A stretch of 21,368 nucleotides of DNA from a virus: IMG/VR virus record IMGVR_UViG_3300005353_000006; one strand, given 5' to 3'. Positions 2,365 to 21,368 of the stretch are shown in pieces (positions within the stretch are counted from its first letter, which is position 1; each line of letters begins with the position of its first letter). The translations under genes were made by a program, and so were the position numbers. The notes beneath the pieces are model-generated. The model made no database searches. It had not been told where the DNA came from and saw only the letters and a program-made list of their open reading frames with translations.

Positions 2365-3252
2365 CTAGCGCCCGGCCTCCTCGGCCAGCACCTTGGCGAC
2401 CGTCGGGTGGGTGCACCCGGCGAGCACCGCGATCGCGCGGTGCGACAGCCCGGCGGCGGCCGCGTCCACGATCGCCTGGCGCCAGGCGCGATCGGCCGTC
2501 ACCTTGGCGGCGGCGACCGCCACCAGCGTGGCGCCGATCGCGTCCTGCCGCTCGGCGCGGTCGGCGGCGGCGGCCTGGCCCGCGGTCTCGGCGACCTGCG
2601 CCAGCTCGGGCGCGGCGGCCGCGACCTCGGCCAGCGTGGCGGCCTCGTTGGCCTCCACCTGGGCGACCAGCTCAGGGTCGATCTCGCGCAGGTTCTCGCG
2701 GGTCGGGGCGGCCTGCAGCTTGCCCATGGTGACCTCCTCGGTGACGGGCTGGGCCTTGGCAAGGATCTTGCCGTAGCGGGTGCGGGCCTTGGCCAGCTTG
2801 GCCAGCGTCTCGGCGTGGCGCCGCTCGGCCCAGGCGATCGTCTCGGCGTAGTCCTCGGCGCGATCCGGGTACTGCTCGGTGTACGCGCCGTACACCTTGC
2901 GGGTGCTGGCCAGCTGCTCGTTGGCGGCCTGCACCCCGCGGCCGTCCTCGGCCACGTACGCCACCGCGATCTCGGCGGCCTCGGCCTCGGTCAGGATCAC
3001 AAAGCCACGCTTGAGCTGGCGGGTGGTGGTCGCGAAGGGCATGTGGGCGGCCGCGAACTTGGGCGGGTAGGCGACGCCGTAGCCGCTCATGCTGCCGTCG
3101 GTGCCGATGATCTCGCGGCCGACCCGGTAGGTGCCGGGCACGTCCTTGGCCTGGTGCAGGCCGCGCGCCTCGCGGGCGGCGGCGATCACGGCGGCGGCGG
3201 CGCCGCGGACGTGGGCCTTGCGGCCGGTGGTGGTGTTCGTGTCGGTGTTCAT
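2365..3252 (-). CDS. Orphan 295-aa protein with C-terminal HTH-like motif (cassette A); candidate DNA-binding regulator
   Basis: Minus-strand ORF with high GC3. ATG at 3252 lies 7 nt downstream of a -10 hexamer. C-terminus AIVDAAAAGLSHRAIAVLAGCTHPTVAKVL fits a resolvase/sigma-r4-style HTH pattern. The N-terminal domain is not recognised. Confidence 0.8.
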   Translation of the reverse strand: MNTDTNTTTGRKAHVRGAAAAVIAAAREARGLHQAKDVPGTYRVGREIIGTDGSMSGYGVAYPPKFAAAHMPFATTTRQLKRGFVILTEAEAAEIAVAYVAEDGRGVQAANEQLASTRKVYGAYTEQYPDRAEDYAETIAWAERRHAETLAKLAKARTRYGKILAKAQPVTEEVTMGKLQAAPTRENLREIDPELVAQVEANEAATLAEVAAAAPELAQVAETAGQAAAADRAERQDAIGATLVAVAAAKVTADRAWRQAIVDAAAAGLSHRAIAVLAGCTHPTVAKVLAEEAGR

Positions 3253-3259
3253 GGAAACA

Positions 3260-3288
3260 AGCTTACCATGGATCCTGGGGGATGGCAA
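3260..3288 (-). promoter_or_regulatory. Putative promoter P_A driving a leaderless transcript of cassette A
   Basis: Minus strand reads TTGCCA-17 nt-(TGG)TAAGCT-7 nt-ATG. -35 at 3283-3288, -10 at 3260-3265, with an extended -10 TGn. Confidence 0.6.
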
Positions 3289-3299
3289 GCGACTTTCCA
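3283..3299. promoter_or_regulatory. 17-bp imperfect palindrome O1, TGGCAAG-CGA-CTTTCCA, overlapping the -35 of P_A (putative operator)
   Basis: Half-sites TGGCAAG and TGGAAAG. An identical copy lies at 3658-3674 and a one-mismatch copy at 19405-19421. Confidence 0.6.
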
Positions 3300-3309
3300 C
3301 CCAGGACGA

Positions 3310-3337
3310 GAACGGGCGCCCCGTGGGGCGCCCGTTC
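3310..3337 (-). terminator. Perfect GC-rich hairpin T_B downstream of cassette B, abutting P_A
   Basis: GAACGGGCGCCC(c-gt-g)GGGCGCCCGTTC, with 12-13 bp arms. Preceded on the + strand by ccaggacga, as for T_A. Confidence 0.6.
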
Positions 3338-3360: not shown

Positions 3361-3627
3361 CTAGCGGCCGCCGCGCAGCTGGCGGGCGGTGACCTCCCCA
3401 GCGCGCTCCAGGGCGCACCGGAGATCGTCGCGGTCAGCGTTCCCGTTGGCGATGTCCTCCACCAGGCCGGTGAGGCCGACGCCGTTCAGCTGCTCGGAGT
3501 AGTGGCTGGCGAGCTGGTAGGCGTCGTCGCCCAGGTTGGCCACGATCCAGCCGGGGCGCTTGCCCGCGTCCAGCAGGTCGATCGCGGTGCGGAGGTGCAG
3601 GTTGGTGGCGCGCGTGTCGGTGTTCAT
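3361..3627 (-). CDS. Orphan 88-aa protein (cassette B) with N-terminal HTH-like pattern
   Basis: Minus-strand ORF. ATG at 3627 lies 7 nt downstream of a -10 hexamer. Shares its first five codons (MNTDT) with cassette A. AIDLLDAGKRPGWIVANLGDDAYQLASHY fits a helix-turn-helix pattern. Confidence 0.75.
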   Translation of the reverse strand: MNTDTRATNLHLRTAIDLLDAGKRPGWIVANLGDDAYQLASHYSEQLNGVGLTGLVEDIANGNADRDDLRCALERAGEVTARQLRGGR

Positions 3628-3634
3628 GGAAAGA

Positions 3635-3663
3635 ACCTTACCACAGGATCCGGGGGATGGCAA
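3635..3663 (-). promoter_or_regulatory. Putative promoter P_B driving a leaderless transcript of cassette B
   Basis: Minus strand reads TTGCCA-17 nt-(TGG)TAAGGT-7 nt-ATG. Confidence 0.6.
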
Positions 3664-3674
3664 GCGACTTTCCA
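3658..3674. promoter_or_regulatory. 17-bp palindrome O2 (identical to O1) overlapping the -35 of P_B
   Basis: TGGCAAGCGACTTTCCA read directly. Confidence 0.6.
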
Positions 3675-3683
3675 CGCCGGCCG

Positions 3684-3698
3684 GTTAGGCAGCCTAAC
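3684..3698. promoter_or_regulatory. Perfect 7-1-7 palindrome GTTAGGC-A-GCCTAAC in the divergent region between cassette B and portal
   Basis: Read directly. AT-enriched for this genome. Overlaps the -35 position of the putative portal promoter. Confidence 0.5.
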
Positions 3699-3714
3699 GA
3701 TCGTGCGCTAGAGT
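3685..3714 (+). promoter_or_regulatory. Putative rightward promoter for portal and downstream genes (leaderless geometry)
   Basis: -10 TAGAGT at 3709-3714, followed by exactly 7 nt and then the portal GTG at 3722. The -35 (TTAGGC/TAGGCA) is weak. Confidence 0.4.
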
Positions 3715-3721
3715 CGGCCCC

Positions 3722-4936
3722 GTGGGTCTGCTGGATCGGCTGCTGGGACGATCCGCACCGCCGCCGCCGTCGGTGCTCGGCCTGCCGTCCGGGTTCGATC
3801 CCGAGCTGGCCGGGCTGTTCGCCGGGTGGGCGTCGCCGCAGCTCGCCGAGCGCGTCGGCACCGCCGTGCGCTGCCTGCAGCTGGTCTGCCAGCAGGTGGC
3901 CGCCATGCCGATCCGGTTCCGCGGCGACTCGCCGGTGCCGCTGTGGGTGGCCAACCCTGACCCGGTGTGGTTCCCGAACGGCGCCGCTGATGCGACGTTC
4001 GCCACGATGGCGTCGATCTACGGCTGGGGCGACGCGTTCCTGCTGGTGACCGACCGCTACGTGACCGGCTTCCCGAGGGCCTACACCGTGCTGGATCCGC
4101 AGCAGGTGACCGTCGGCACCGACCCGGACGGCCGCGGCCGCACGTACCGGGTGAAGCAGTACGACCTGCGCAGCGAGGACGTGCTGCAGATCTCGCGCGA
4201 TCCGAACGGGCAGCTGCGCGGCACCTCGGCGCTGCAGGGCTACTCGGCCAACGTCCAGGGCGCCTACTTCGCCGAGAAGTTCGCGACCGACTTCTACCAG
4301 CAGGGCGGCGTGCCGTGGGCGGTGCTGCAGTCCAGCCGCCGCCTGGAGGCCGACCAGGCCGCCGCGCTGCAGGCGCAGTGGACAGCTCGGGTCGGCCTGC
4401 GCGGCGGCGCCCCGGCGGTGCTGCCGCCCGATGTCACGTTCCAGCAGTTCAGCTTCGCGCCGCGCGACCTGCTGCTGCTGGAGACCCGCGAGTGGGACGC
4501 CAAGCAGATCGCCGCCGCCTACGGCGTGCCCGCGTTCATGCTGAACATGGAGCAGGCGGGCGGCCTGAACTACTCCAACCCGGAGATGCTGTTCGACACC
4601 TGGTGGCGCACCGAGCTGTACCCGACCGCGCGCCGGGTGGAGGCCGCGCTGTCCACGTGGCTGCCGCGCGGCAGCTGGGTGGAGTTCGATCCGTCGATCC
4701 TGCTGCGGCCCGATCTGAAGACCGCCAGCGAGGTGTGGCTGGCGCTGCTCGCGGCCAACGTGGTGACGGTGGACGAGTGCCGCGCGGCGGTGCTGGATCT
4801 GCCGCCGCTGGCCGACGGCGAGGCGCTGGAGCTGATCGACGAGCCGCCCGGCGCGAACGCCAGCGGCCCGACCCCGCCCGACCTGCCCGCGCCGCCACCG
4901 GCGGCCGCACCCCTGGAGGTGGTGGCAAGTGCCTGA
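3722..4936 (+). CDS. Portal protein (HK97 family)
   Basis: 404 aa in the position after terL. Typical portal core QGGVPWAVLQS...FQQFSFAPRDLLLLETREWDAKQIAAAYGVPAFML...YSNPE. Confidence 0.9.
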   Translation: MGLLDRLLGRSAPPPPSVLGLPSGFDPELAGLFAGWASPQLAERVGTAVRCLQLVCQQVAAMPIRFRGDSPVPLWVANPDPVWFPNGAADATFATMASIYGWGDAFLLVTDRYVTGFPRAYTVLDPQQVTVGTDPDGRGRTYRVKQYDLRSEDVLQISRDPNGQLRGTSALQGYSANVQGAYFAEKFATDFYQQGGVPWAVLQSSRRLEADQAAALQAQWTARVGLRGGAPAVLPPDVTFQQFSFAPRDLLLLETREWDAKQIAAAYGVPAFMLNMEQAGGLNYSNPEMLFDTWWRTELYPTARRVEAALSTWLPRGSWVEFDPSILLRPDLKTASEVWLALLAANVVTVDECRAAVLDLPPLADGEALELIDEPPGANASGPTPPDLPAPPPAAAPLEVVASA

Positions 4937-5540
4937 CCAGCCGATCCTGACCCGCGTGTTCCAGGTGGAGGACGTGCACGTCCGGGCCGCGATCGACGGC
5001 GGCCCGGTCGGCCGGATCCTGGATCTGCGGGTGGTGCCGTACAACGTGAGCGCCCAGGTGCGCGACGCGCCCGACGCCGAGCCGTACCTGGAGCAGTTCG
5101 CGCCGGGCGCGTTCGCTCGCGCGGTGCGGGCGCCCGATCGGGTGCAGTTCCGCTACCACCACGGCCAGGGCCTGGCCGACTGGATCGGCCGGGGCGTCCA
5201 GTTCGCGGAGGGCGACGGCGGCCTGGACGGCTCGGTGCGGGTGCTGCCGGGCGTGTTCGGCGACCAGGCCCTGACGCTGGTGGACGAGGGCATGCTGCGG
5301 GGCGTGTCGGTCGGCTTCCAGGATCTCGCCCGCCGCAACCGGCGCGCTGGAGACGGCGCGATCATCCGCGAGCGGTGCCACCTGGTGGAGGTGTCGCTGA
5401 CGCCGGAACCGGCCTACGCGGGCGCCGCCGTCACCGGCCGCCGATCGCGCACGCCCGATCCCGACTGGATCGACCTGGCCGTCCGGCCGGACACCGGCGA
5501 GCTGGACGCCCGGCTGCGCGCGGTCGGGATCGACGTGTAG
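4929..5540 (+). CDS. Prohead maturation protease (HK97/S78 family)
   Basis: GTG overlaps the portal stop (GTGCCTGA). Motifs FAPGAF...RYHHG...GLDGSVRV...GDQALTLVDEGMLRGVSVGF. Confidence 0.88.
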   Translation: MPDQPILTRVFQVEDVHVRAAIDGGPVGRILDLRVVPYNVSAQVRDAPDAEPYLEQFAPGAFARAVRAPDRVQFRYHHGQGLADWIGRGVQFAEGDGGLDGSVRVLPGVFGDQALTLVDEGMLRGVSVGFQDLARRNRRAGDGAIIRERCHLVEVSLTPEPAYAGAAVTGRRSRTPDPDWIDLAVRPDTGELDARLRAVGIDV

Positions 5541-6564: not shown

Positions 6565-7803
6565 ATGCCGAACGTCGTACTGCAGCGTCTCGTGACCGAG
6601 CGCGAGCAGCTGCTGGACACCAACGATCAGATCCTGCAGCGCGCCGAGGAGGAGGAGCGCGACCCGTCGGAGGCCGAGCGCGAGCTGCTGCGCCGCAACC
6701 GCGAGCGCGCCACCCAGCTGGAGCCGCAGGTGGAGGAGCTGCTGGAGCTGGAGGAGACGCGCGCCCGCAGCGGCGAGCAGCGCGCCCGGATCACCCGCGC
6801 GATCGGCGCTCCGGCCCGCGAGGGCGGCGAGGCGCCCGCCGAGCGCGGCGACGCGCCCGGCGAGATCGTCTACCGGACGTTCGCGCAGTACGCCCGAGAC
6901 GCGCTGATCACCCGCGTGGAGCAGATCGGGAACATCGTCGGCCCCGAGCTGCGCCAGCGCGCCGCCGAGCGGCTGCAGCGCGCCGCCCAGGTGCACACCC
7001 TGACCAGCGACGTGCCGGGCCTGATCCCCGACCAGCACCTGGCGCAGATCTTCGAGGTGATCAACACCGCGCGGCCGGTGGTCGCCAGCTCGCGGCAGGT
7101 CGGCCTCACCTCGGGCAAGCTGACGTGGCCGTCCATCACCGCCCGCCCGACCGTCGCCAAGCAGGTCACGGAGAAGACCAACCCGGCCTACTCCAAGATG
7201 GCCGTGATCATGCGCGAGGTGGTGGCCGACACCTACCTGGGCGCGGGCAACCTGAGCTGGCAGACGATCCAGTGGTCTAGCCCGGACGCGCTGACGCTGT
7301 TCTTCGATCTGATGGCCGAGGCGTACGCCGAGCAGACCGAGAGCGCCGCCTGCACCGTGGTGGACACCGCCGCCGCCGCGGGCGGCACCGTCGCGTCGGA
7401 CGACCTGGCGGGCTGGATGGCCGCGATCGCGGCCGCCGCCGGGCAGGTGCGCGCCGCGGGTGGCCGCGCCAACGCGATCTACCTGGACGCGATCACCGGC
7501 TACAGCCTGCTGGGCCTGGTGACGGCGCAAAACCCGGTGTTCCTGACCGCTGGCCCCGGCTCGCTGGGCGACGCGTCCGGCAACCTGGGCGGGCTGCGGT
7601 TCATTGTCTCGGACGGGTTCGCCGCGTCCACCGCGATCGTGGGCGACAGCTCCAAGCTGCTGTGCGCCGAGACGCCCGGCGCGCCGGTGGAGATGCGCGC
7701 CGTGGAGCCGTCGATCGGCGGCCTGGAGGTGGGCGTGATCGGTGCGTTCGCGGCCGTCGCGGTGCTGCCCGGCGCGTTCGTCCAGCTGACCCCGCCGGTG
7801 TGA
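6565..7803 (+). CDS. Major capsid protein, HK97 fold, with N-terminal coiled-coil delta (scaffolding) domain
   Basis: ATG follows GGAGGGG. The N-terminal ~100 aa are a charged coiled coil, followed by a typical HK97 MCP core (DQHLAQIFEVINTARPV...KLTWP...). Confidence 0.92.
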   Translation: MPNVVLQRLVTEREQLLDTNDQILQRAEEEERDPSEAERELLRRNRERATQLEPQVEELLELEETRARSGEQRARITRAIGAPAREGGEAPAERGDAPGEIVYRTFAQYARDALITRVEQIGNIVGPELRQRAAERLQRAAQVHTLTSDVPGLIPDQHLAQIFEVINTARPVVASSRQVGLTSGKLTWPSITARPTVAKQVTEKTNPAYSKMAVIMREVVADTYLGAGNLSWQTIQWSSPDALTLFFDLMAEAYAEQTESAACTVVDTAAAAGGTVASDDLAGWMAAIAAAAGQVRAAGGRANAIYLDAITGYSLLGLVTAQNPVFLTAGPGSLGDASGNLGGLRFIVSDGFAASTAIVGDSSKLLCAETPGAPVEMRAVEPSIGGLEVGVIGAFAAVAVLPGAFVQLTPPV

Positions 7804-7805
7804 CC

Positions 7806-7988
7806 ATGACCCCGCACCGTGACCGGCTGCTGGCCGGAGACTACGACCCTGGCAAGTCCGCTACCACCGACCTGGATCAGATGACCAAGGCCGAGCTGCT
7901 GGAGCACGCCCAGCGGCTCGGCGTGGCCGTCGATCCGAGCGCCACCAAGGCCGAGGTGCGGGCCGCGATCGACGCGGCCGGGAGCTGA
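7806..7988 (+). CDS. Small 60-aa protein with Rho-N/SAP-like helix-extended-helix motif
   Basis: ATG lies 2 nt after the MCP stop. MTKAELLEHAQRLGVAVDPSATKAEVRAAIDAA. Confidence 0.75.
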   Translation: MTPHRDRLLAGDYDPGKSATTDLDQMTKAELLEHAQRLGVAVDPSATKAEVRAAIDAAGS

Positions 7989-10104: not shown

Positions 10105-11871
10105 GTGGCGGGTGGCGCCAGCGTCGTAGTCCGGTTCCTGGCCAACACCACCGACCTGGCCAAGGGCGCCAAGGACGTGGAGGCGCACGGCAGCCGCATG
10201 GGATCGGCCTTCAAGTCGATGGGCAAGGCCGCCGCGCTGGGCGCCGGAGCGGCCGGGATCGGCGCCGTCGTCGCCACCCTGAAGGTCGGCATTGACGAGT
10301 ACCAGGAAGCCTCCCAGGTGGCCGCGCAGACCAACGCCGTGATCAAGTCCACCGGCCAGGTGGCGGGCGTCTCGGCCGACCACGTGGGCGACCTCGCCGA
10401 GTCGCTGATGCGCAAGTCCGGGATCGACGACGAGGCGATCGCCTCGGGCGAGAACCTGCTGCTGCAGTTCACCAAGATCCGCAACGAGGCGGGCGCGGGC
10501 AACGACGTGTTCGATCGCACCACCAAGGCCATGACCGACATGGCCGCGCGCATGGGCACCGACCCGGCCGCCGCCGCCAAGGTGCTGGGCAAGGCCCTGA
10601 ACGATCCCGCCAAGGGCCTGACCAAGCTGGCCAAGCTGGGCGTGACGTTCACCGACGCCCAGCAGAAGCAGGTGAAGGCCATGACCGAGGCGGGCGACGT
10701 GGCGGGCGCGCAGAAGATCATCCTCGGCGAGGTGGAGAAGCGATACGGCGGCGCCGCCGAGGCCGCTGGTAAGACGCTTCCCGGGATGATCAACATTGCC
10801 AAGCAGTCGTTCAACAACCTGGCGGGCGAGCTGGTCGCCAAGATGATCCCGGCGCTGCTGGCGGTGGTCTCGTTCATCCGCGAACACTGGCCCGAGATCT
10901 CGCTGGTGATCGCCAAGGTGACCGCGACGGTCAAGCCGCTGCTGGTCGCGCTGGCGCAGCTGTTCCTGGAGATCGTGGACGTGATCGTCTCCGCCTGGCC
11001 GTCGATCCGGCCGGTGATCCTGGCGATCCTCCCGGCCCTGCAGGCCGCCGTCGCGGTGATCACCAACGTGGTGAAGCTGGTCACCGCGCTGCTGCGCGGC
11101 GACTGGAGCGCCGCCTGGACGGCGGCCAAGGCCATCGTGCTGAACATCGTCAAGCTGATCACCGCGCTGCTGCGGTTCGAAGTCACGATCTGGAAGACCG
11201 TCCTGAGCGCCGCCTGGACAGCGATCAAGGCCGCCACCAGCGCCGCCTGGAACGCGATCAAGGCGGCCGTCTCCAGCGCCGTCACCGCGATCGGCGGCGC
11301 GCTCGGTCAGATCCCCGCCAAGATCTCCAGCCTGGTGCACAGCGTCGCGACGCAGGCGGGCAAGCTGGGCAGCGCGATCAAGGACGGGATCGTGGACGGC
11401 GCCAAGGACGCGCTGCGCGCCGTCGGCGACGCGATCGGTGCGATCCCGGGCAAGATCTCCAGCCTGGTGCACGCCGTTGGCCGCGAGGCGGGCCGCGTCG
11501 CCAGCGCGATCAAGGATCCGATCAACGCGGTGATCCGGGCCTGGAACGGGATCGTCTTTCACGTGCCCAAGTTCACCGTCGGCGGCGGCTCGCACCTGGG
11601 CGTCGATATCCCCAAGTTCACGTTCGGCGGCCAGTCGATCGACTTCCCGAACCTGCCGACGCTGGCCCGCGGCGGGGTGCTGACCCGGCCCACGCTGTTC
11701 GTGGGCGGCGAGGCCGGGCGCGAGATCGTGGCGCCCGAGTCGCTGCTGCGGCAGCTGCTGCGCGAGGAGCACGGCGCCACCTACCAGCTGTTCCTGCAGC
11801 CGCGCACCGCCGACGCCCAGGACGTGGCGTACGCGTTCCGGCGGCTGGAGCTGCTGAGGACGGGCCGCTAG
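10105..11871 (+). CDS. Tape measure protein
   Basis: 588 aa, Ala/Gly/Lys-rich and helical with hydrophobic central segments. Lies directly before the Dit-like gene. Confidence 0.9.
   Translation: MAGGASVVVRFLANTTDLAKGAKDVEAHGSRMGSAFKSMGKAAALGAGAAGIGAVVATLKVGIDEYQEASQVAAQTNAVIKSTGQVAGVSADHVGDLAESLMRKSGIDDEAIASGENLLLQFTKIRNEAGAGNDVFDRTTKAMTDMAARMGTDPAAAAKVLGKALNDPAKGLTKLAKLGVTFTDAQQKQVKAMTEAGDVAGAQKIILGEVEKRYGGAAEAAGKTLPGMINIAKQSFNNLAGELVAKMIPALLAVVSFIREHWPEISLVIAKVTATVKPLLVALAQLFLEIVDVIVSAWPSIRPVILAILPALQAAVAVITNVVKLVTALLRGDWSAAWTAAKAIVLNIVKLITALLRFEVTIWKTVLSAAWTAIKAATSAAWNAIKAAVSSAVTAIGGALGQIPAKISSLVHSVATQAGKLGSAIKDGIVDGAKDALRAVGDAIGAIPGKISSLVHAVGREAGRVASAIKDPINAVIRAWNGIVFHVPKFTVGGGSHLGVDIPKFTFGGQSIDFPNLPTLARGGVLTRPTLFVGGEAGREIVAPESLLRQLLREEHGATYQLFLQPRTADAQDVAYAFRRLELLRTGR
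11320..11517 (+). repeat. In-frame 132-nt (44-aa) tandem duplication inside the tape measure gene
   Basis: Exact 21-mer aagatctccagcctggtgcac at 11320 and 11452. agcgcgatcaagga occurs at about 11371 and 11504. Confidence 0.85.
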
Positions 11872-12732: not shown

Positions 12733-13841
12733 GGTTCCACGGCCCCACCGTGCGGCTGTGGGCGTGCGACTGGCAGACCCCGCTGGCCGAGATCGACACC
12801 TACGACCACGGCACGCTGATCGCCCGGTACAACGAGATCTCCACGTATGAGCTGGAGCTGCCCGCCGACACCGAGGCGGCGCAGCTGCTGCTCGCCGCCG
12901 ACCGCCCCAGGCTGCTGATCTTCACCGATGACGTGGTGTACCGATCGGGGCCGGTAACGCGGATCGAACGCACCCGCGACGCGACCAGCGACATGGTGAC
13001 CCTGAACGGCGTGGACGACCTGGTGTGGCTGGCGCGGCGGCTGGCGCACCCCGAGCCGGGCACCGCCGCGCCGCCCTACGCCACCAGCGCGTACGACACC
13101 CGCACCGGCGCCGCGTCGCAGGTGATCGCGGGCTACGTCGACCGCAACGCCGGGCCGTCGGCGATCGCGGCGCGGCAGGTGGCGGGCCTGACGGTGCCGA
13201 CCCCGGCCGCGTTCGGCGGCACGATCACCACCAGCGCCCGCTACCAGGGCCTGCTCGCGTTCCTGCAGCCGATCGCGGCCGCCGCCCGGCTCGGGATCCG
13301 CGTCCGGGATCTCGCGTTCGAAGTGTTCCAGCCGTCCGGCGCGGCGGTGTTCAACGTCGGCCTGGGCACGCTGGCCAGCTGGCAGTCGGCGCTGGAGGCG
13401 CCCGACCTGAACTACGTGTACGTGGCCGGGGCGGGCGTCGGCAGCGCGCGGCTGATCCGCGAGTACCAGGACACCGGCGCGGTGCTGCAGTGGGGCCGGG
13501 TGGAGACGTTCATCGACCGGCGCGACACCAGCGCCACCGCCGAGCTTGACCAGGCCGGGGCCGAGGCGCTGGCCGACGGGGTGCGGCCGATCATGGTGAC
13601 GCTGGAGGTGATGGACACCGACGGGCAGCAGTTCCTGCGCGACTGGAACGTGGGCGACCTGGCGACCGTGGTGGTCGGCGACCTGGTGACCACCGACGTG
13701 ATCGTGGAGGCGCAGATCGACCTGCTGCCGAACCGGCCGCTGCAGGTGCGCCCGACCGTCGGCGCCAGCTCGCTGACCCTGGCGCAGTGGCGGCTGGCGC
13801 AACGCCAGGCGCAACGACTCCGGCAGCTGGAAAGGATCTAA
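12717..13841 (+). CDS. Minor tail protein in the Tal position (Gp37-like)
   Basis: GTG 12717 overlaps the Dit 3' end. The long upstream extension of this ORF is a frame shadow of Dit. 374 aa. Confidence 0.7.
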   Translation: MAGGVGFHGPTVRLWACDWQTPLAEIDTYDHGTLIARYNEISTYELELPADTEAAQLLLAADRPRLLIFTDDVVYRSGPVTRIERTRDATSDMVTLNGVDDLVWLARRLAHPEPGTAAPPYATSAYDTRTGAASQVIAGYVDRNAGPSAIAARQVAGLTVPTPAAFGGTITTSARYQGLLAFLQPIAAAARLGIRVRDLAFEVFQPSGAAVFNVGLGTLASWQSALEAPDLNYVYVAGAGVGSARLIREYQDTGAVLQWGRVETFIDRRDTSATAELDQAGAEALADGVRPIMVTLEVMDTDGQQFLRDWNVGDLATVVVGDLVTTDVIVEAQIDLLPNRPLQVRPTVGASSLTLAQWRLAQRQAQRLRQLERI

Positions 13842-13844
13842 CCG

Positions 13845-14705
13845 ATGGCTGATCTTGCAGTGTGGCCGACCGACGGCGCCGACGGCAGCGTCTCCTCCGA
13901 GGCGCGATGGCGCAAGATGGCGCGGCTGTGGGTGCCGAGCGGCGTGGACGTGTCGCCGCTCGGTGTCGGCGGCGCGGGTGCGCTGGCGCCGACGCTGGTG
14001 GCTGGCCCGACGATCAACGTGGCGATCGGCGGCTGTTGGCTGGACGGCCACTACGCCGAGCTGACCACGCCCGCCAGCGTGCCCGCGACCGCCAACGGCC
14101 TGCTGGTGGTGCGGTTCACCCCGGCCGACAATCACGCCGAGCTGCTGTTCCGCGACGCGGCGGTGCTGCCGCCGACGCAGACCGCCGTGACCTGGGAGCT
14201 GGCGATCGCCAGCATGGCGGCGGGCGCGCTGACCGACCGCAGGATGCGCAACGGGTCGCCGCCGACGTTCCCCAACTACGCCACCCTGAAGGCGCTGTAC
14301 CCGACCGCGCCGGACGGGTTCCAGGCGGTGACGCTGGACGACGGCCGCACCTACACGTTCCGGGCGGCCGCGTTCACGTACACCCCGCCCGGCGTGGCCG
14401 CACCAGCCAACCGCTGGGAGACGATCGTGATGGCCTCGTTCGCGAAGACCACCGACGCGTCGGGCCTGATCAACGTGACCGCCGCCGACCTGGGCGTGGA
14501 CGGGATCATCCACGGCACCGGCCACGCGGGCTGGGACGCGTCGGCGCCGCCCGGCCGCAACTTCGGCGCGTTCGTGCGCTGGACGGCCGCCACCAACCTG
14601 CAGTTCTGCAGCTGGAAGATCTCCGCCACCTCGGCGGGCACGCTGACCCTGAACACCTCGGTGTCGCTGAACGTCACCGCCCACGCGCTGTGCTGGCGGA
14701 TCTGA
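13845..14705 (+). CDS. Minor tail / putative receptor-binding (fibre-like) protein
   Basis: ATG follows GGAAAGGA. 286 aa. Position after the Tal-position gene. Confidence 0.7.
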   Translation: MADLAVWPTDGADGSVSSEARWRKMARLWVPSGVDVSPLGVGGAGALAPTLVAGPTINVAIGGCWLDGHYAELTTPASVPATANGLLVVRFTPADNHAELLFRDAAVLPPTQTAVTWELAIASMAAGALTDRRMRNGSPPTFPNYATLKALYPTAPDGFQAVTLDDGRTYTFRAAAFTYTPPGVAAPANRWETIVMASFAKTTDASGLINVTAADLGVDGIIHGTGHAGWDASAPPGRNFGAFVRWTAATNLQFCSWKISATSAGTLTLNTSVSLNVTAHALCWRI

Positions 14706-15006: not shown

Positions 15007-15092
15007 ACCACCCTGGCGCAGTGGTGCGCGCACCCCGACGGGTGGGTGGTAGCCGCCACTGGACGGCTGGTGGAGCGGTCAACTAGATTGTG

Positions 15093-15129
15093 GGCCTGCT
15101 TCCAGGCCATCGGGGGCCGGTACGGCCCC
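15093..15129 (+). terminator. Two tandem perfect hairpins downstream of the late gene block
   Basis: GGCCTG-cttc-CAGGCC (15093-15108) and GGGGCCG-gta-CGGCCCC (15113-15129). Confidence 0.45.
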
Positions 15130-15310
15130 GTCTACGGCGGTGGCCTGGTCGGCGGAGGACAGCAGCGGGCGAGCCGGGCGCGGCACCCCGCCGTCGGTCT
15201 GAACCGGGCCGTTCGGAGGGGACGACCCTGACCTGCTAGGGGGGCGTCCCATGCCACGCATTCGCCGCAAATTGCGACACTTACGTGAGATCCGCAGACC
15301 CGCGCCAACG

Positions 15311-15350
15311 AGCGCGGGGAGGCGCGGGGATCCGCGGGGAGGCGCGGGCA
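15311..15350. repeat. Four tandem 10-bp repeats with core CGCGGG
   Basis: agcgcgggga / ggcgcgggga / tccgcgggga / ggcgcgggca. Equivalently, the 16-mer cgcggggaggcgcggg occurs at 15313 and 15333. Confidence 0.85.
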
Positions 15351-15408
15351 TGCGCAGCGGTCGCGCAGACCGCCGCAGGCTGTCGCACCTACGCGCAGGT
15401 TGGCCCGG

Positions 15409-15437
15409 TTGGCGGGCCGATCGTGCGGCGCTAGGTT
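15409..15437 (+). promoter_or_regulatory. Putative xis/int promoter
   Basis: TTGGCG-17 nt-TAGGTT, then 7 nt to ATG 15445. Those 7 nt also contain GGAGG, so a conventional leader is equally possible. Confidence 0.4.
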
Positions 15438-15444
15438 CGGAGGC

Positions 15445-15670: not shown

Positions 15671-15687
15671 TGGAAACTGTGTTACCA
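15671..15687. promoter_or_regulatory. 17-bp palindrome TGGAAAC-TGT-GTTACCA at the xis/int junction (same TGGnAAn-N3-nTTnCCA skeleton as O1/O2)
   Basis: Read directly, with one mismatch between arms. AT-rich for this genome. Its last A is the A of the alternative int start, ATG 15687. Confidence 0.45.
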
Positions 15688-15734
15688 TGGGGCTGCTGGG
15701 CGATGATCGCCCGCACCGACACGAGGAGCCGACG

Positions 15735-16931
15735 GTGACCGACACCACCGCCACCCGCACGTTCGCCCAGCACGTTGACCAGCCCGGCGGCCCCGGCACG
15801 CAGTACCGGGTGCGCCTCCGGTTCCCGGGCATGGCCACGATCTACACCGAGTGGCACAGCGACCTGGACGTGGCCAACGCCCGCGCCTCGGAGCTGCGCG
15901 CGATCCGCAAGCGCGGCGAAGGCCCCAGCGACGGCGCCCGGTTCGTGACCCTCGGCGACATGGCCCGCGAGGTGCTGGCCGCCAAGGGTATCGCCGGGCT
16001 GACCGAGGGCGGCCTGGAGTGGTGGGCGCGGATCCTGCGGCCGCTGATCGACGGGCCGCACGCGGCCACGCCGGTGCACCTGCTGCCCGTCGCCAAGATC
16101 CGCACCGCCCACCTGGAGCGCGCCGCCAAGCATCCCAAGGCCGCCAACGACGAGCGGATCGGCCTGGAGGCCGTGCTGCGCGCCGCGCAGGCCGACGGCG
16201 CCAAGGTGCCGGGCGCGCTGCTGGAGCTGCCGACGCCGGTGTGGGAGACCCGCGAGCGCGTCACGATCCACCGCGACGGCGAGCTGGCCGCGTTCGCGCT
16301 CGGCGCGCCCGACCGCTACGCGCGGCTGGTGCTGCTCCAGGGCATGGTCGGCTGTCGCATCGGCGAGCTGCTGCAGCTGCGCCGCGACTGGATCGACCTG
16401 GCCGAGGGCACCATCACGATCCCGCCCGCCGCGCACAAGTCGGGCAAGCGGATCGGCGCCAAGATCATCCCGCTGCTGCCCGAGGAGATCGCGCTGCTGA
16501 CCGAGCAGCTGGCCACCCTGCGCGTGGCGGGCGCCACGCCCACCTCGCACCTGCCCGGCACCCCGGCCGAGTCGGAGCTGGTGTGGCCGATGCCGGACGG
16601 CTCGGCCTGGCCGATGATCCACGGCCGCGTGGCGCACAGCTACTTCAATCGCCACGTCTGGCAGCCGACGCTGGCCGCCGCCGGGCGCGACGATCTCACC
16701 TCGCACGATCTGCGCGCCACCGCCGTCACGATCATGCGCGACCGCGGGATCTCCGAGGAGACCTGCCAGCTGCGGGTCGGCCACGCCGACGCCAAGCTGA
16801 TCCGCTCGGTCTACGACAAGGGCAGCCGCCTGGCGCGGGCGCAGCGCGAGCTGGTGGCGATCGCGGCGGCAGAGGTGGCGACCGTCACCGACACGATTCC
16901 GGCCGCCACCGCCGAGGAGGCTACCCGATGA
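15735..16931 (+). CDS. int: Tyrosine integrase
   Basis: Catalytic pattern: R in CRIGELLQLR, HDLRATAV (H-x-x-R), VGHAD, and Y in IRSVYDKG. GTG 15735 lies 6 nt after GAGGAG. Alternative start is ATG 15687. Confidence 0.9.
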   Translation: MTDTTATRTFAQHVDQPGGPGTQYRVRLRFPGMATIYTEWHSDLDVANARASELRAIRKRGEGPSDGARFVTLGDMAREVLAAKGIAGLTEGGLEWWARILRPLIDGPHAATPVHLLPVAKIRTAHLERAAKHPKAANDERIGLEAVLRAAQADGAKVPGALLELPTPVWETRERVTIHRDGELAAFALGAPDRYARLVLLQGMVGCRIGELLQLRRDWIDLAEGTITIPPAAHKSGKRIGAKIIPLLPEEIALLTEQLATLRVAGATPTSHLPGTPAESELVWPMPDGSAWPMIHGRVAHSYFNRHVWQPTLAAAGRDDLTSHDLRATAVTIMRDRGISEETCQLRVGHADAKLIRSVYDKGSRLARAQRELVAIAAAEVATVTDTIPAATAEEATR

Positions 16932-17128: not shown

Positions 17129-17137
17129 GCGCGCCCG

Positions 17138-17156
17138 GTGTCAATTCTGTGTCAAC
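17138..17156 (+). repeat. 19-bp direct repeat, copy 1: GTGTCAATTCTGTGTCAAC (two GTGTCA boxes 11 bp apart)
   Basis: 18 of 19 nt match 17345-17363. Confidence 0.9.
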
Positions 17157-17170
17157 CCTGACCGCGGCCA

Positions 17171-17207
17171 ACGGCCCGATCCCTGCAGCCATGCGGGATC
17201 GGGCCGT
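17171..17207. repeat. Perfect 13-bp inverted repeat with an 11-nt loop
   Basis: ACGGCCCGATCCC-tgcagccatgc-GGGATCGGGCCGT. Confidence 0.9.
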
Positions 17208-17209
17208 TC

Positions 17210-17236
17210 CCGTTCCGGTGTCTGACACCGAAACGG
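17210..17236. repeat. 13-1-13 palindrome with one mismatch, centred on GGTGTC-T-GACACC
   Basis: CCGTTCCGGTGTC-t-GACACCGAAACGG. Confidence 0.85.
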
Positions 17237-17315
17237 CCCCGCGCGTGTCTGCGGCCGTCGGCGGGATTCCGCGTAACCATGCGGGTTCGCGTGGTCTAGG
17301 CCGCGTGACCCTGCG

Positions 17316-17654
17316 GTGCCCTGCGGGTGTCTGCGCGGGCCTGCGTGTCAGTTCTGTGTCAACGCGGCGGCCCTGGTGACCCGCGCCGACCGCACCCCGC
17401 CCGCGCCCGCCGGGCGGCTCAGCACCGCCCAGGTCGGCGCCGTGCTGACCGCCCTGGCCCGCGCCGCCAGCACCGCCGACGACCGCGCCGCGGTGGTCGC
17501 GCTGCGTGACTGCCAGCTGTGGCTGAACACCACCACCGCCCTGGCCCGCGCCGCCGAGCGCCGCCAGCTGGTGCGCTGCCCGAGCTGCCGCGAACCGCTG
17601 CCCGAGCTGGGCGAGCTTCACGACCTGCTGCACCGGCTGGCGGTGGAGCTGTGA
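17316..17654 (+). CDS. Hypothetical early protein with possible split zinc-ribbon cysteines
   Basis: Good GC3 from about 17376 onward. CQFC near the N-terminus and CPSC near the C-terminus. Start uncertain (GTG 17316 or GTG 17376). The 5' end overlaps the second 19-bp repeat. Confidence 0.6.
   Translation: MPCGCLRGPACQFCVNAAALVTRADRTPPAPAGRLSTAQVGAVLTALARAASTADDRAAVVALRDCQLWLNTTTALARAAERRQLVRCPSCREPLPELGELHDLLHRLAVEL
17345..17363 (+). repeat. 19-bp direct repeat, copy 2: GTGTCAGTTCTGTGTCAAC
   Basis: See copy 1. The two copies are 207 bp apart. Confidence 0.9.
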
Positions 17655-17922: not shown

Positions 17923-18128
17923 CCGCGCCACAGCTGACGCTGGAGGAGCAGATCGCCACCGAGGTGGCGCTGCGCGACTACCTGGCCAGCGAGGCCGCCT
18001 ACTACCGGCGCCGCGCCGAGACCGGGCACGACCGCCAGCACGCGATCCAGCTGGAGGACTGGGTGACCCAGCTGGACGCCGTGATCTCCAACCGTCGGAT
18101 GGCGCGGCGTGCCGACGCTGTGCCGTGA
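17919..18128 (+). CDS. Hypothetical 69-aa protein
   Basis: GTGA overlap. High GC3. Confidence 0.65.
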   Translation: MTAPQLTLEEQIATEVALRDYLASEAAYYRRRAETGHDRQHAIQLEDWVTQLDAVISNRRMARRADAVP

Positions 18129-19050
18129 GTGCGGCCGGGTGGTGGCGGCGCAGCTGGTGCCCGGCGCGTGGCTGTGCGAGACCTGCAACCGAGGAGGACG
18201 ACCCGTGAGCACTCCCGCTGAGCACGGCGGCGCCGCCCCGCCGCCCGAGAAGCCCCCTGAAACGCCCGCTGAGGCGATCCCGCCGTCCGAGGCCGAGGGT
18301 ACGGCCGAGGTGCTGGACGCGCCGGAGACGCCCGCTACGACGCCCGCACGTGGAAGCGGGCCTTCCACGCGGACGATCGATCCGCCCCGTGCCCTGCCTG
18401 CTCGCCGCGGGGTTCAGCTGGTCACCCGGCCGGAGCCGTCCTGGCGCGAGCTGGGCTGGTGGCTGTCGCTGGCCGAGTCGGGCCAGGAGACCGCCCAGGC
18501 CCGCGGCGGCCGCGCCGCGCTGCGCCTCTACTACGTGACCCAGCTGGGCCTGCCGCTGTGGGCGGCCAGCCACCTGTCGGTGATCAACGGCCGCCTGGTG
18601 GTGTCCTCGGAGCTGCTGCGCGCGATCGCGGCCCGCGCCGGGTACGACGTGGCGCCCGAGGACTGGACAGACGACAGCTGCACCGCCTACGTGGTGCGCC
18701 GCGCCGACGGCGAGGTGATCGGCCGGTACACGTTCACGATCGCCGACGCCCAGCGGGCCGAGCTGATCCGGCCCCGGTCGGCCTGGGTGACGCACCCGCG
18801 CCGGATGCTGTGGGCGCGAGCGGCCGCGTTCGCGCTGCGCGACGCGATCCCGGAGGTGGTGCTGGGCTTCCAGACCACCGACGAGCAGGCCGAGATCTAC
18901 GGCCGCGAGGCGGAGCCGATCGGCGTGGACGCGCCGTACGAGTACGGCCCCGCCGAGCGAGACGAGGACATCCCGTTCCGGTGGCGCGACCCGTGGCTGA
19001 CCGGGGAGGTGAACGTCGATGGCGCGGCCGACCACCTGCGACTGCGGTAG
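18109..19050 (+). CDS. RecT-family single-strand annealing protein with N-terminal CxxC-x14-CxxC zinc ribbon and Pro-rich linker
   Basis: The C-terminal part aligns by eye with RecT (YVTQLGLPL...; AWVTHPRRMLWARAAAFALRDAIP versus E. coli RecT PWVTHWEEMAKKTAIRRLFKYLP). Alternative start is GTG 18205, after GAGGAGGAC. Confidence 0.8.
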   Translation: MPTLCRECGRVVAAQLVPGAWLCETCNRGGRPVSTPAEHGGAAPPPEKPPETPAEAIPPSEAEGTAEVLDAPETPATTPARGSGPSTRTIDPPRALPARRGVQLVTRPEPSWRELGWWLSLAESGQETAQARGGRAALRLYYVTQLGLPLWAASHLSVINGRLVVSSELLRAIAARAGYDVAPEDWTDDSCTAYVVRRADGEVIGRYTFTIADAQRAELIRPRSAWVTHPRRMLWARAAAFALRDAIPEVVLGFQTTDEQAEIYGREAEPIGVDAPYEYGPAERDEDIPFRWRDPWLTGEVNVDGAADHLRLR

Positions 19051-19399
19051 CTGTGCGACCTGCCGCCATCGGGTCTACATGCGCCGATGGCAGGCCGCGC
19101 ACCCCGGCTACGCGGCAGCCGCGGTGCGGCGCCGCAGGGCCGAGCATCCCGAGGAGCTGCGCGAGTACGACCGCGACCGCTGGCACCATGACCGTGAGTT
19201 TCGGCGGCGCAAGCGGGCGCGGAATCGGGTCTCCACGGCCTTGGCCCGAGGCGAGCTGGTGCGGGCTGATGCCTGCGAGTCCTGCGGGGCCGAGCGGTTC
19301 TGCGAGGCGCACCACGCCGACTACAGCCGCCCGCTGGACGTGACGTGGCTGTGCAGGGACTGCCATCACGCCGTGCACGTGCCGGAGGCGCTGATCTAG
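19019..19399 (+). CDS. Second HNH-type endonuclease
   Basis: CESCG...CEAHHADYSRPLDVTWLCRDCHHAVH. N-terminal Cys cluster CDCGSCATC. More T-ending codons than neighbouring genes. Confidence 0.8.
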   Translation: MARPTTCDCGSCATCRHRVYMRRWQAAHPGYAAAAVRRRRAEHPEELREYDRDRWHHDREFRRRKRARNRVSTALARGELVRADACESCGAERFCEAHHADYSRPLDVTWLCRDCHHAVHVPEALI

Positions 19400-19403
19400 G
19401 GCC

Positions 19404-19931
19404 GTGGCAAGCGACCTTCCACCGAGGCCCGCCTGGCGGCGCCGCTGTGCCCTGGCCGCCGTCTCGCCCGGCGCCAAGGCCGTCGTGCTGGCGCTGGACA
19501 CCTACATGGACGCGGCCTGCCGCGCGCAGGTCTCGCGCGGCAGGCTGGCGGCCGATCTCGGCGTGACGGCGCGCACCGCGCTGCGGTGGATTCACGAGCT
19601 GGAGGCGGCCGAGCTGCTGGGCGTCGATCGCACGATCGGGCACCACGTGAACCGCTACCAGGGCCGTCCCTACGGTGACACCCGCGACACCGTGACGGTG
19701 ACACGGGCGTCACGGTCTACGGTGACAGCTGAGACCGCCGACGGTGACAGCTCACGACCACTGACGGTGACACGGGTGTCACCCGAACTAGAAGGTCAGA
19801 AGGACAACGGCGCGGGCGCGCGCGGCGACGGTCAAGCCCGCGGCGAGGGCTACGGCAGCGCCTCGGGCGCGCAGCTCGCGCGGGAGGCGGCGGCGGCAGC
19901 CCGGCGGAGGATCCTGGAGGGCGGCGCGTGA
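19404..19931 (+). CDS. Winged-helix DNA-binding protein, candidate replication initiator (lambda O-like arrangement)
   Basis: KAVVLALDTYMDAACRAQVSRGRLAADLGVTARTALRWIHELEAAELLGV is a typical wHTH pattern. The iteron array lies inside its own coding sequence. Confidence 0.75.
   Translation: MASDLPPRPAWRRRCALAAVSPGAKAVVLALDTYMDAACRAQVSRGRLAADLGVTARTALRWIHELEAAELLGVDRTIGHHVNRYQGRPYGDTRDTVTVTRASRSTVTAETADGDSSRPLTVTRVSPELEGQKDNGAGARGDGQARGEGYGSASGAQLAREAAAAARRRILEGGA
19405..19421. promoter_or_regulatory. 17-bp palindrome O3, TGGCAAG-CGA-CCTTCCA, over the start codon of the initiator-like gene
   Basis: 16 of 17 nt identical to O1/O2. No -10 lies at the position used in P_A/P_B. Confidence 0.55.
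19672..19772 (+). repeat. Five direct iterons ACGGTGACA at spacings of 23, 24, 22 and 23 bp (candidate origin iterons)
   Basis: Copies at 19672, 19695, 19719, 19741 and 19764. Copies 2 and 5 extend to GGTGACACGGGYGTCAC. Confidence 0.85.
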
Positions 19932-20038
19932 TCGCGGTGGACGCCAGCCTGGGCCTGACGGGCGGCGAGCTGCGGCTGCTCGGCGTGCTGGTGCTCGTGA
20001 TCGCGCTGGTGGCGCTGTTCGCGTCGCCACCACGGTGA
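19928..20038 (+). CDS. 36-aa single-pass membrane peptide upstream of the lysin
   Basis: GTGA overlaps at both ends. LRLLGVLVLVIALVALFA. Confidence 0.55.
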   Translation: MIAVDASLGLTGGELRLLGVLVLVIALVALFASPPR

Positions 20039-21243
20039 ACGGGCTGGAGGCGCTGGGCGTGATGGCGCTGATCCTGGTGGCGATCGGGCTGGCGGGCCGG
20101 GTAGTTCGGCTGCCGAACGATCGCGCTAGGATCGACGGCATGGCCGACGCGTACAGCTACCTGACCGACTCGGAGCGGGTGACCTTCAACGAGACCTCGC
20201 GCCTCATGCAGCTGACCGACTGGGCGGGCTGGGACGCCACCCTGCAAGCCCAGTTCGACACCACCCAGCAGTGGATCCGCGATCGGCGCGCCTATATCAG
20301 CGACCTGGCCACCGGCGAGGTGGAGTCAAGCAACGGGCCGGGCTGGGACGTGGCGCACCGCCGCGAGCGGTACGACTACCTGCACAAGGCGAACCACAGC
20401 GACGCGGCGCCGCGGGTGCTGTGCCAGCTGCCGACCGAGGGCGGCACCGACGCCGAGAAGGTCTACACGTCACAGCGCGAGCTGTGGTGGCGCGAACCGA
20501 AGGGCGCCTACTCCGAGCAGTCGGCGCGGCGCCAGGCGATCACCGATTGGCTGGTGGAGCGCCGCCAGTACGTGTGGCGCCTCGCCGAGGGCCAGGTGCC
20601 CGGCGAGACGCCCGGCTGGGATCACGCCAACCGTCGCCAGCGGTACTCCAACCTGCAGGTCGCGACCAAGCACGGCAGCGCCTACGACAGCTGGTGCAAG
20701 TCCCACAACACCACCACCGGCGAGCCGAAGGGCGACGGCAGCAGCTCCTCGGGTGGAAGCGGATCTACCAGCGCTCGAGATCGCGCGCTCAGCTGGATGG
20801 CGCAGCATCGCGGCCTGAACGAGCAGCCGGGCGGATCCAACTGCGACAGCCGCTCGGACGGGATCCGCACCGCGCAGGATCGCTGCGTGGCCATGGGCAG
20901 CTCGGGCACGTGGCTGCGCTACCAGCCGTGGTGCGGGGTCTGGTGCGCGAACGCCATGCAAGCCGCGGGCGTGAAGGGCCTGACCTACGACCTGGCCAGC
21001 GTGGAGTGGATCGAGGCCCGCGCGAAGGCGGGCAAGGCGCCCTTCACCGGCTGGACGACCGACCCGAGCAGGGTACGGCCCGGCGACCTGGTGACGCTGT
21101 TCTCACCCGGCCAGCACGTGGCCATGGTGCGCACGCCCGGCACCAACCCGGTGACCGAGGAGGGCAACACGTCCGACACCTCGGCGCAGCGCACGCGATC
21201 CAAGGGCGACGTGGTGGGCTACGCGCTGGTGGCGTACCCGTGA
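20035..21243 (+). CDS. Cell-wall hydrolase/endolysin with N-terminal TM anchor, two ~39-aa internal repeats and a C-terminal CHAP/NlpC-P60-type domain
   Basis: TM LEALGVMALILVAIGLAG. Catalytic-type motifs PWCGVWCANAM, GDLVTLFSPGQHVAMV and EEGNTS. Confidence 0.85.
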   Translation: MNGLEALGVMALILVAIGLAGRVVRLPNDRARIDGMADAYSYLTDSERVTFNETSRLMQLTDWAGWDATLQAQFDTTQQWIRDRRAYISDLATGEVESSNGPGWDVAHRRERYDYLHKANHSDAAPRVLCQLPTEGGTDAEKVYTSQRELWWREPKGAYSEQSARRQAITDWLVERRQYVWRLAEGQVPGETPGWDHANRRQRYSNLQVATKHGSAYDSWCKSHNTTTGEPKGDGSSSSGGSGSTSARDRALSWMAQHRGLNEQPGGSNCDSRSDGIRTAQDRCVAMGSSGTWLRYQPWCGVWCANAMQAAGVKGLTYDLASVEWIEARAKAGKAPFTGWTTDPSRVRPGDLVTLFSPGQHVAMVRTPGTNPVTEEGNTSDTSAQRTRSKGDVVGYALVAYP

Positions 21244-21260
21244 CCAACGAGGAGGAGCAC

Positions 21261-21368
21261 GTGACCGACCAGGCCGAGGCGCCGGACACCGAGCGCACCG
21301 ATGACGCTGCCTTCAGCGACGACGCCACCGAGAAGCTGGGCGACGCCACCGAGCGCGAGACCAACGAG
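21261..21368 (+). CDS. Hyper-acidic small protein, 5' part (continues at nt 1 across the circular junction)
   Basis: GTG 21261 lies 3 nt after GGAGGAG (21251-21257). In frame with nt 1-177 through the terminal repeat. Confidence 0.7.
   Translation, partial: MTDQAEAPDTERTDDAAFSDDATEKLGDATERETNE
21309..21368. repeat. Terminal direct repeat, copy 2
   Basis: Identical to nt 1-60. Confidence 0.97.

Follow-up and report, generated by a model that had tools for sequence, protein, structure and literature searches.

Several temperate phages carry many copies of one regulator site scattered over the genome. Here, we relate such systems to O3, a 17-bp palindromic site on the start codon of the gene g19404 in the viral record IMGVR_UViG_3300005353_000006 (the window, i.e., the whole stretch of 21,368 nt that was analysed). 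The repressor of phiC31, a temperate phage of the actinobacterium Streptomyces, binds many ~17-bp conserved inverted repeats (CIRs) scattered in its genome. The CIRs are found mostly upstream of early genes, and the phiC31 repressor gene has another position and belongs to another family than the genes considered here. For Cluster A mycobacteriophages (L5 gp71, TipsytheTRex repressor), repressor sites at promoters as well as dispersed sites, typically in short intergenic gaps, have been described, and it was proposed that the repressor halts RNA polymerase during elongation at the dispersed ones (PMC9283540). These stoperators are asymmetric 13-mers (PMC9283540), bound by a monomeric repressor with two DNA-binding domains, and number more than 20 per ~50-kb genome. 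Cluster O mycobacteriophages show 34 copies of the 17-bp dyad TGTTCGGNNNCCGAACA, i.e., 7-bp inverted repeats separated by 3 bp, which their authors consider to be sites for a dimeric regulator, of unknown function and associated with insertions and deletions (PMC4351075).

The window motif is likewise a 7-3-7 palindrome, TGGNAAG-N3-CTTNCCA. It has 8 copies at up to one mismatch (0.01 expected) and 11 at up to two mismatches (0.13 expected), such that O3, which an earlier note on this DNA had introduced as the third copy, is one of 8 to 11. Four copies are found at the promoters P_A and P_B of the genes gA and gB (two per promoter, 31 bp apart), while seven are non-promoter sites. The sites and the three genes are as follows (L numbers denote contigs of other genomes).

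3283-3299, distal operator of P_A (O1); -35 element TTGCCA at 3283-3288, minus strand
3252-3268, proximal operator of P_A; spans the -10 element TAAGCT (3260-3265, minus strand) up to and including the A of the gA ATG
3658-3674, distal operator of P_B (O2); -35 element TTGCCA at 3658-3663, minus strand
3627-3643, proximal operator of P_B; spans the -10 element TAAGGT (3635-3640, minus strand) up to and including the A of the gB ATG
2757-2773, dispersed site TGGCAAGGATCTTGCCG, inside gA
4923-4939, dispersed site TGGCAAGTGCCTGACCA, spans the stop codon of the portal gene and GTG 4929 of the protease gene; lost in L026
7850-7866, dispersed site with two mismatches, within the head gene 7806-7988
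10767-10783, dispersed site TGGTAAGACGCTTCCCG, inside the tape-measure gene
13828-13844, dispersed site with two mismatches, at a tail-gene junction; covers the stop 13839-13841 and abuts ATG 13845; one mismatch in L002
15671-15687, dispersed site with two mismatches, in the 17-nt gap 5' of the integrase gene; its final base is the A of ATG 15687
19405-19421, plus strand, O3, TGGCAAGCGACCTTCCA, i.e., TGGCAAG-CGA-CCTTCCA; palindromic site on codons 1-6 of g19404
2365-3252, minus strand, gA (295 aa); N-terminal alpha/beta domain, variable linker and a long helix into a conserved C-terminal helix-turn-helix (HTH)
3361-3627, minus strand, gB (88 aa); second cassette gene, with a copy of the same promoter/operator module
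19404-19931, plus strand, g19404 (175 aa); winged helix (residues 10-90), disordered part (91-152) and C-terminal helix

Judging from sequence comparison, we give a probability of roughly 50% to the reading that O3 is one of a phage-wide set of 17-bp dyad sites for a dimeric HTH regulator of the phage, most probably of the gA type.

With regard to Cluster A, the window sites resemble stoperators in that they occur at promoters (4) as well as dispersed (7, of which 4 touch start codons). Within the seven non-promoter sites, the left half shows 1 mismatch in total and the right half 9 (n=7; a dyad has no intrinsic direction), i.e., the consensus half-site is upstream relative to rightward transcription in 6/7 sites. 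This recalls the orientation rule of stoperators (PMC9283540) and is, given n=7, suggestive only. On the other hand, the window sites are 17-bp dyads with 11 copies per 21 kb and not asymmetric 13-mers, and gA possesses just one HTH, located at its C-terminus behind a long helix, while Cluster A repressors combine an N-terminal HTH with a stoperator domain. None of the window proteins could be linked to gp71-type repressors by Pfam, PHROG, NCBIfam or PDB-sequence matches, and for gA there was no fold match to them either.

The likeness to Cluster O concerns the 7-3-7 layout, the spread among intergenic gaps, gene 5' ends and gene interiors, and the loss of individual sites via single changes. 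The sequence is a different one, there are 11 instead of 34 copies, and the half-sites are degenerate while the Cluster O repeat is invariant. Furthermore, most Cluster O copies are away from promoters and no specific binder was proposed for them, whereas the window motif is tied to the promoter of an HTH gene. As for lambda CI, the regulator gene is antisense to lytic genes, its own promoter carries tandem operators at whole helical turns, and distant sites capable of looping are present. Unlike in lambda, no operator was found at an early lytic promoter, the regulator gene is found between terminase and portal, and the HTH is C-terminal. The many dispersed ~17-bp inverted repeats would, as in phiC31, be served by one repressor. 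By analogy, we thus regard the system as one of dispersed phage regulator sites that may be stoperator-like in its working but lacks the defining features of Cluster A, while its architecture matches that of the Cluster O repeats.

O3 and its copies: position, codon use and conservation

What the earlier note reported on the site itself could be confirmed, i.e., the 17-mer at 19405-19421 matches O1/O2 at 16/17 positions and covers codons 1-6 of the GTG 19404 gene (codon 1 base 2 to codon 6 base 3). At up to three mismatches, the O3 17-mer occurs elsewhere in the window only at 3283-3299 and 3658-3674, with one difference each. Exact 17-mer matches in the AT-rich viral contigs L003, L004 and L008 are unrelated and were set aside as chance.

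The frame of g19404 opens after TGA 19392-19394, and GTG 19404 is its sole start codon before codon 28. The G+C content of third codon positions (GC3) climbs to ~0.95 from 19405 on, i.e., the coding signal begins at GTG 19404. We accept this start because the N-terminal peptide is conserved, with L5, P6, P9, A10, W11 and R12 invariant in six homologues. The public call for the g19404 protein (P0001, 148 aa) begins at codon 28 and omits the O3-bearing part (19404-19485). Later starts were also picked by gene callers for two relatives.

The site is held at the same codons in five diverged g19404 alleles:

Window, TGGCAAG CGA CCTTCCA
L001/L023, TGGCAAG CGA CCTACCA
L002, TGGCAAG CGC GCTACCA
L022/L037, TGGCAAG CAG CCTTCCA
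L026, TGGCAGG TGC GTTACCA

Amino-acid changes among these alleles are confined to the central N3 (D, A or S). Codon 2 is GCA and codon 6 is CCA in all five, which make up only 2.4% of the Ala and 2.5% of the Pro codons of the genome, respectively. The Leu codon within O3 is CTT, CTA or TTA (1.2%, 0.8% and 0 of 595 Leu codons), i.e., the L026 site uses a TTA that window genes use 0/595 times. Pro codon 7, directly outside the motif, reads CCG, CCG, CCA, CCT and CCC across the five alleles. Two allele types, L021/L036 (GCC..CTG) and L020/L034 (GCC GGG CTG CCG), have lost O3 and use common codons; L020 and L021 sit on contigs of 1.6-4.3 kb, and the metagenome scan yielded none longer. When all sites are compared with the most diverged full genome, identity is 116/120 for specified positions, 39/50 for N positions and 1047/1156 for flanks (P = 3e-4 and 0.026).

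Since the N-terminal residues are invariant, the peptide itself is constrained, which might point to O3 having arisen by chance or as a consequence of encoding V-A-S-D-L-P. We find this hardly credible. Dinucleotide shuffles give 0.01 expected matches to the O3 17-mer; in synonymous-codon shuffles, where the proteins and the per-gene codon usage are kept, 0.04 coding sites with no more than one mismatch are expected compared to 4 observed; and the motif-free L020 and L021 alleles encode the same peptide with common codons. Both kinds of shuffles as well as these alleles refute the idea. Taken from sequence, O3 is under DNA-level constraint and is a genuine selected copy of the cassette operator.

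The set of copies is well separated from the rest of the genome: in a weight-matrix scan, the 11 sites score at least 18.5 while the next best position reaches 13.7, which is partly circular as the matrix was built from the same sites. A start codon is touched by 4/7 non-promoter sites compared to 2.9% of all positions (P = 2e-5). The 15671 site is retained with changes in L026 (TGGAAAGCGTGCTACCA). Two variant dyads, TGGAAGC GGG CCTTCCA (18351-18367) and TGGAAGC GGA TCTACCA (20754-20770), are similar to those distal operators that L016 and L033, two diverged relatives, carry (TGGTAGC..GCTTCCA) and may be weak or ancestral sites.

That four dispersed sites touch plus-strand start codons would also fit an RNA element, i.e., a hairpin over the start codons of g19404 and other plus-strand genes that is bound by a translational repressor or sequesters the start. 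In addition, GGGCC/GGCCC arms flank O3, in the window alone. The O3 folds of four genomes show, however, z-scores of -1.0, +1.2, -0.25 and -0.04 relative to shuffles and dissimilar structures. The loop closed by the stem would have just 3 nt, N4 and N14 are complementary in only 1/11 sites, and the P_A/P_B sites are upstream of leaderless starts, so outside the gA/gB mRNAs. We thus rejected a hairpin at O3, which folds no better than shuffles and is not conserved in the four genomes, and consider the RNA reading very improbable. Given the rarely pairing N4/N14, the unremarkable RNA folds and the promoter copies outside the gA/gB mRNAs, the most economical explanation is a dimeric protein that binds the DNA.

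O3 could be ruled out as a third promoter copy, in agreement with the earlier note: the minus strand shows CTCCGG where P_A/P_B carry the -10 elements TAAGCT/TAAGGT, and no partner (proximal) site is found 31 bp from O3. A generic sigma-70 scan reports nothing in either region; it misses P_A/P_B too and is hence uninformative. The surroundings of O3, described before as unrelated, are not wholly so, since O3 matches O1 at 28/35 positions, but no flank extension recurs among the sites. The distance of about 16 kb to the cassettes turned out to be an artefact of linearisation. Since the window begins and ends with the same 60 nt (1-60, 21309-21368), it represents a circularly closed contig of 21,308 bp, on which O3 and O1 are separated by 5,186 bp along the short arc.

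Locally, O3 starts shortly 3' of the upstream stop, and the g19404 coding sequence begins 4 nt after that stop, within a long rightward transcription unit. The gene in front is a second HNH endonuclease gene:

19019-19399, plus strand, second HNH endonuclease gene; placed behind the final RecT codon (..EDIPF) and in front of the TAG preceding O3

It is found in the window genome only, while the relatives run from RecT straight to O3 (L001 1400-1440; L002 9960-10005). The gene looks like a free-standing homing endonuclease insertion beside a conserved site.

This exact insertion between the last RecT codon and the TAG is among the observations for a reading in which O3 persists chiefly as a short junction for module exchange or insertion, i.e., as a recombination linker and not as a regulatory site for g19404. 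O3 also sits at a mosaic boundary, at which the identity of L001 and L022 drops from 93% (150 nt upstream) to 68% (150 nt downstream), and the motif-bearing cassette promoters flank units that vary (cassette number, gA N-terminal domain). The dyad repeats of Cluster O likewise flank insertions/deletions (PMC4351075). Yet a linker leaves unexplained why paired palindromes are placed exactly over the -35/-10 elements of an HTH gene promoter and why conservation is higher at specified positions than at N positions. Furthermore, a conserved binding site would also come to serve as a recombination patch, which is compatible with the regulator reading. We therefore consider a mere linker to be quite unlikely.

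Candidate binding proteins and proposed mode of action

Read toward gA/gB, P_A and P_B have the form TGGAAAGTCGC-TTGCCA, 17 nt, TAAGCT or TAAGGT, 7 nt, ATG. Both are leaderless, and their -35 element is the end of the 17-mer. At the sequence level, the pairing of operators over the promoter's own -35 and -10 elements is conserved across relatives, as is the spacing of 31 bp, i.e., three helical turns. The two genes are placed between the terminase and portal genes. The module stays constant among relatives, although these encode either a single cassette or two, and some have exchanged the N-terminal domain of gA. The system behaves like a promoter-plus-leader cassette system. The duplicated promoter module comprises 81 nt (3228-3308, 3603-3683) including the first five codons, such that gA, gB and the relatives' unrelated cassette proteins all start with MNTDT. 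Between gB and P_A, a strong G+C-rich hairpin GAACGGGCGCC..GGCGCCCGTTC (3310-3337) without U-tract is kept in relatives and is probably the gB terminator.

Only gA and g19404 carry recognisable DNA-binding domains in the window. None of gA, gB and g19404 could be assigned to a family or defence system (Pfam above cut-off, NCBIfam, PADLOC, PDB sequences). The gA recognition helix (..G-C-T-H-P-T-V-A-K..; G279, H282, P283, T284, V285, K287) is invariant in 14 homologues, including the L001 type with its replaced N-terminal domain. In the gA model, a 74-residue helix (193-266) leads into a three-helix HTH, which suits a predicted dimer on a palindrome. Foldseek reports only local HTH matches of NarL/LuxR type for this model, and no peptidase or RecA-sensitive domain was detected in gA. 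An additional HTH_23 protein of L026 was discarded as binder; it is unrelated to gA and not encoded in the window.

For g19404, the nearest folds are the CodY C-domain, ArsR/SmtB and MarR regulators and plasmid centromere-binding proteins, all with E-values of at least 0.01 and for a model with a mean predicted local distance difference test (pLDDT) score of 61. Its HTH_36 score remains under the Pfam cut-off (21.6 vs 25 bits). The earlier designation as replication-initiator-like is not borne out: the sole, weak link is phrog_270, which matches only the winged HTH (profile positions 41-128 of 383). Concerning origin iterons, i.e., clustered direct repeats beside an A+T-rich stretch, there is no tandem array at O3, and the motif copies are single inverted repeats scattered genome-wide. 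Sequence and model suggest a generic winged-helix protein with a disordered tail and not a demonstrated replication initiator.

Alternatively, g19404 might bind its own start (autoregulation) as well as the P_A/P_B sites for a Cro-like shut-off of the cassettes, possibly sharing operators with gA. The position of O3 would fit a frequent mode of autoregulation, in which a regulator binds at its own start codon. The folds nearest to residues 10-90 are those of dimeric palindrome-binding regulators and centromere-binding proteins, and a homologue is encoded in every full-length motif-bearing genome recovered. We nevertheless hold g19404 as the binder to be unlikely. Its predicted recognition helix differs strongly between allele groups (RTALRWIHELE in the window type vs STVKRAVHRLE in the L002/L022 type) and the protein is down to 48-49% identity, while the motif core is unchanged. 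O3 has no promoter to autoregulate either, and the structure matches are weak given the E-values and pLDDT from above. Because the gA helix is invariant, the gA promoter itself carries the paired sites and the g19404 helix diverges while the motif core stays, we favour gA, i.e., the predicted binder is most probably the C-terminal HTH of gA as a dimer, with g19404 or both proteins being less favoured.

If a gA-type regulator binds the motif, the paired sites over -35 and -10/+1 of P_A/P_B would be the primary operators and provide cooperative negative autoregulation. A dimer at O3 would cover the start of the g19404 coding sequence (18 nt). It would meet polymerase that arrives from the early genes upstream (RecT/HNH) and could form a stoperator-like roadblock ahead of g19404, lysin and terminase. 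As an alternative or additional role, O3 may loop to the cassette operators 5.2 kb away. The earlier note had linked O3 specifically to control of the replication/early module. Such a special link is not supported, as the same palindrome is found at the portal/protease, head, tape-measure, tail, integrase and gA loci. Since O3 is one of about eleven dispersed copies, the pattern looks like genome-wide silencing and not like a dedicated switch on a replication gene.

Several observations weigh against the gA-type regulator reading. The right half of O3, CCTTCCA, deviates from CTTNCCA although encoding Leu as TTG would make a perfect site. A weight-matrix scan of the non-coding early regions 15007-15444 and 17129-17315 finds no copy above background. 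As for the immunity repressor brought up before, operators overlap the regulator's own -35/-10 elements, but copies are missing in the early non-coding regions, at which a classical immunity repressor should act, and the gA-type protein is thus not established as one. Presence/absence cannot separate gA from g19404, as both are encoded in every full-length motif-bearing genome recovered. Covariation of HTH and operator is not clean either, i.e., P0016 and P0017 show the canonical recognition helix yet TGGTAGC-type distal sites at 45 bp. Conservation contributes only modest weight because the relatives are close (85-95% DNA identity), and for the comparison with L026 specified positions against flanks reach P = 0.055. 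Finally, A/T third positions make up 19% in codons 2-6 of all genes compared to 5% elsewhere. A rare-codon argument from A/T third positions alone is therefore weak and was replaced by the per-codon usage and the contrast of codons 6 and 7; the excess of A/T-ending codons inside the sites is partly circular and was not used as evidence.

We only tentatively put forward a broader reading, i.e., that a family of uncultured temperate 21-kb phages of high-G+C hosts silence their whole prophage via a dimeric regulator, encoded at an unusual place between terminase and portal, on dyad roadblocks that rare codons accommodate in start codons and coding sequence and whose strong half always faces rightward transcription. 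This would be a second, independently evolved stoperator system, with a dyad in place of an asymmetric site. If so, it could also account for the 7-3-7 repeats of Cluster O. If the sites act as roadblocks for a dimeric repressor, prophage silencing at the level of elongation would not be peculiar to Cluster A with its monomeric two-domain repressor and would have arisen again with an ordinary palindrome-binding HTH. Since the motif is physically coupled to a single HTH gene via its promoter, it offers a concrete candidate binder for dispersed 7-3-7 repeats, a puzzle in Cluster O since 2015. For annotation, the results imply that clusters of very rare codons at gene starts of high-G+C phages can mark overlapping DNA sites.

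Genome context and further candidate regulatory elements

The genome has 73% G+C. Frame-specific GC3 together with family scans indicates that it is compact and belongs to a temperate, siphophage-like phage. Its further genes are:

390-734, first HNH gene
643-2178, large terminase, annotated TTG start
3722-4936, portal
4929, GTG start of the protease gene
6565-7803, capsid
10105-11871, tape-measure gene, among tail genes
15687-16931, integrase
18109-19050, RecT-like gene
20035-21243, lysin-like gene

The first HNH gene and the annotated TTG start of the terminase overlap by ~90 nt, and the terminase probably starts further downstream than annotated. The circle junction is crossed by a gene that begins near 21244 and ends at 177.

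No cultured phage was found to be close or near-identical at DNA level. For the capsid protein, there is only a distant similarity to the capsids of Cluster O mycobacteriophages (34% identity across 28% of the length). Relatives stem solely from soil and rhizosphere metagenomes, plus one contig of a metagenome-assembled genome. In contig L026 (NCBI GCA_037024475.1, JBAIGQ010000648.1), O3 occupies 14583-14599, minus strand. When 185,579 species genomes were scanned with the g19404 and gA alignments, no host or prophage relatives were detected, and a tRNA search of the window yielded none and thus no clue to the phage attachment site (attP).

The early region shows another leaderless promoter with TTGGCG (15409-15414), 17 nt, TAGGTT (15432-15437), 7 nt and ATG 15445, which drives a 74-aa gene upstream of the integrase. 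The non-coding part 15007-15444 (430 nt) probably holds attP. A second repeat family, GTGTCARTTCTGTGTCAAC, has copies at 17138 and 17345 in the early region, i.e., GTGTCAATTCTGTGTCAAC (17138-17156) and GTGTCAGTTCTGTGTCAAC (17345-17363), which are 207 bp apart; L002, L022, L026 and L037 contain one exact copy each. These repeats are candidate sites for another regulator, or for an origin.

The portal gene is preceded by a rightward promoter of leaderless type, i.e., TTAGGC, 18 nt, TAGAGT (3709-3714), 7 nt and GTG 3722. A different palindrome, GTTAGGC-A-GCCTAAC (3684-3698), is found over its -35 element, with symmetry mostly kept in L014 (ATTAGGT-C-GCCTAAT). Together with P_B, the portal promoter forms a divergent promoter region with two kinds of operators.

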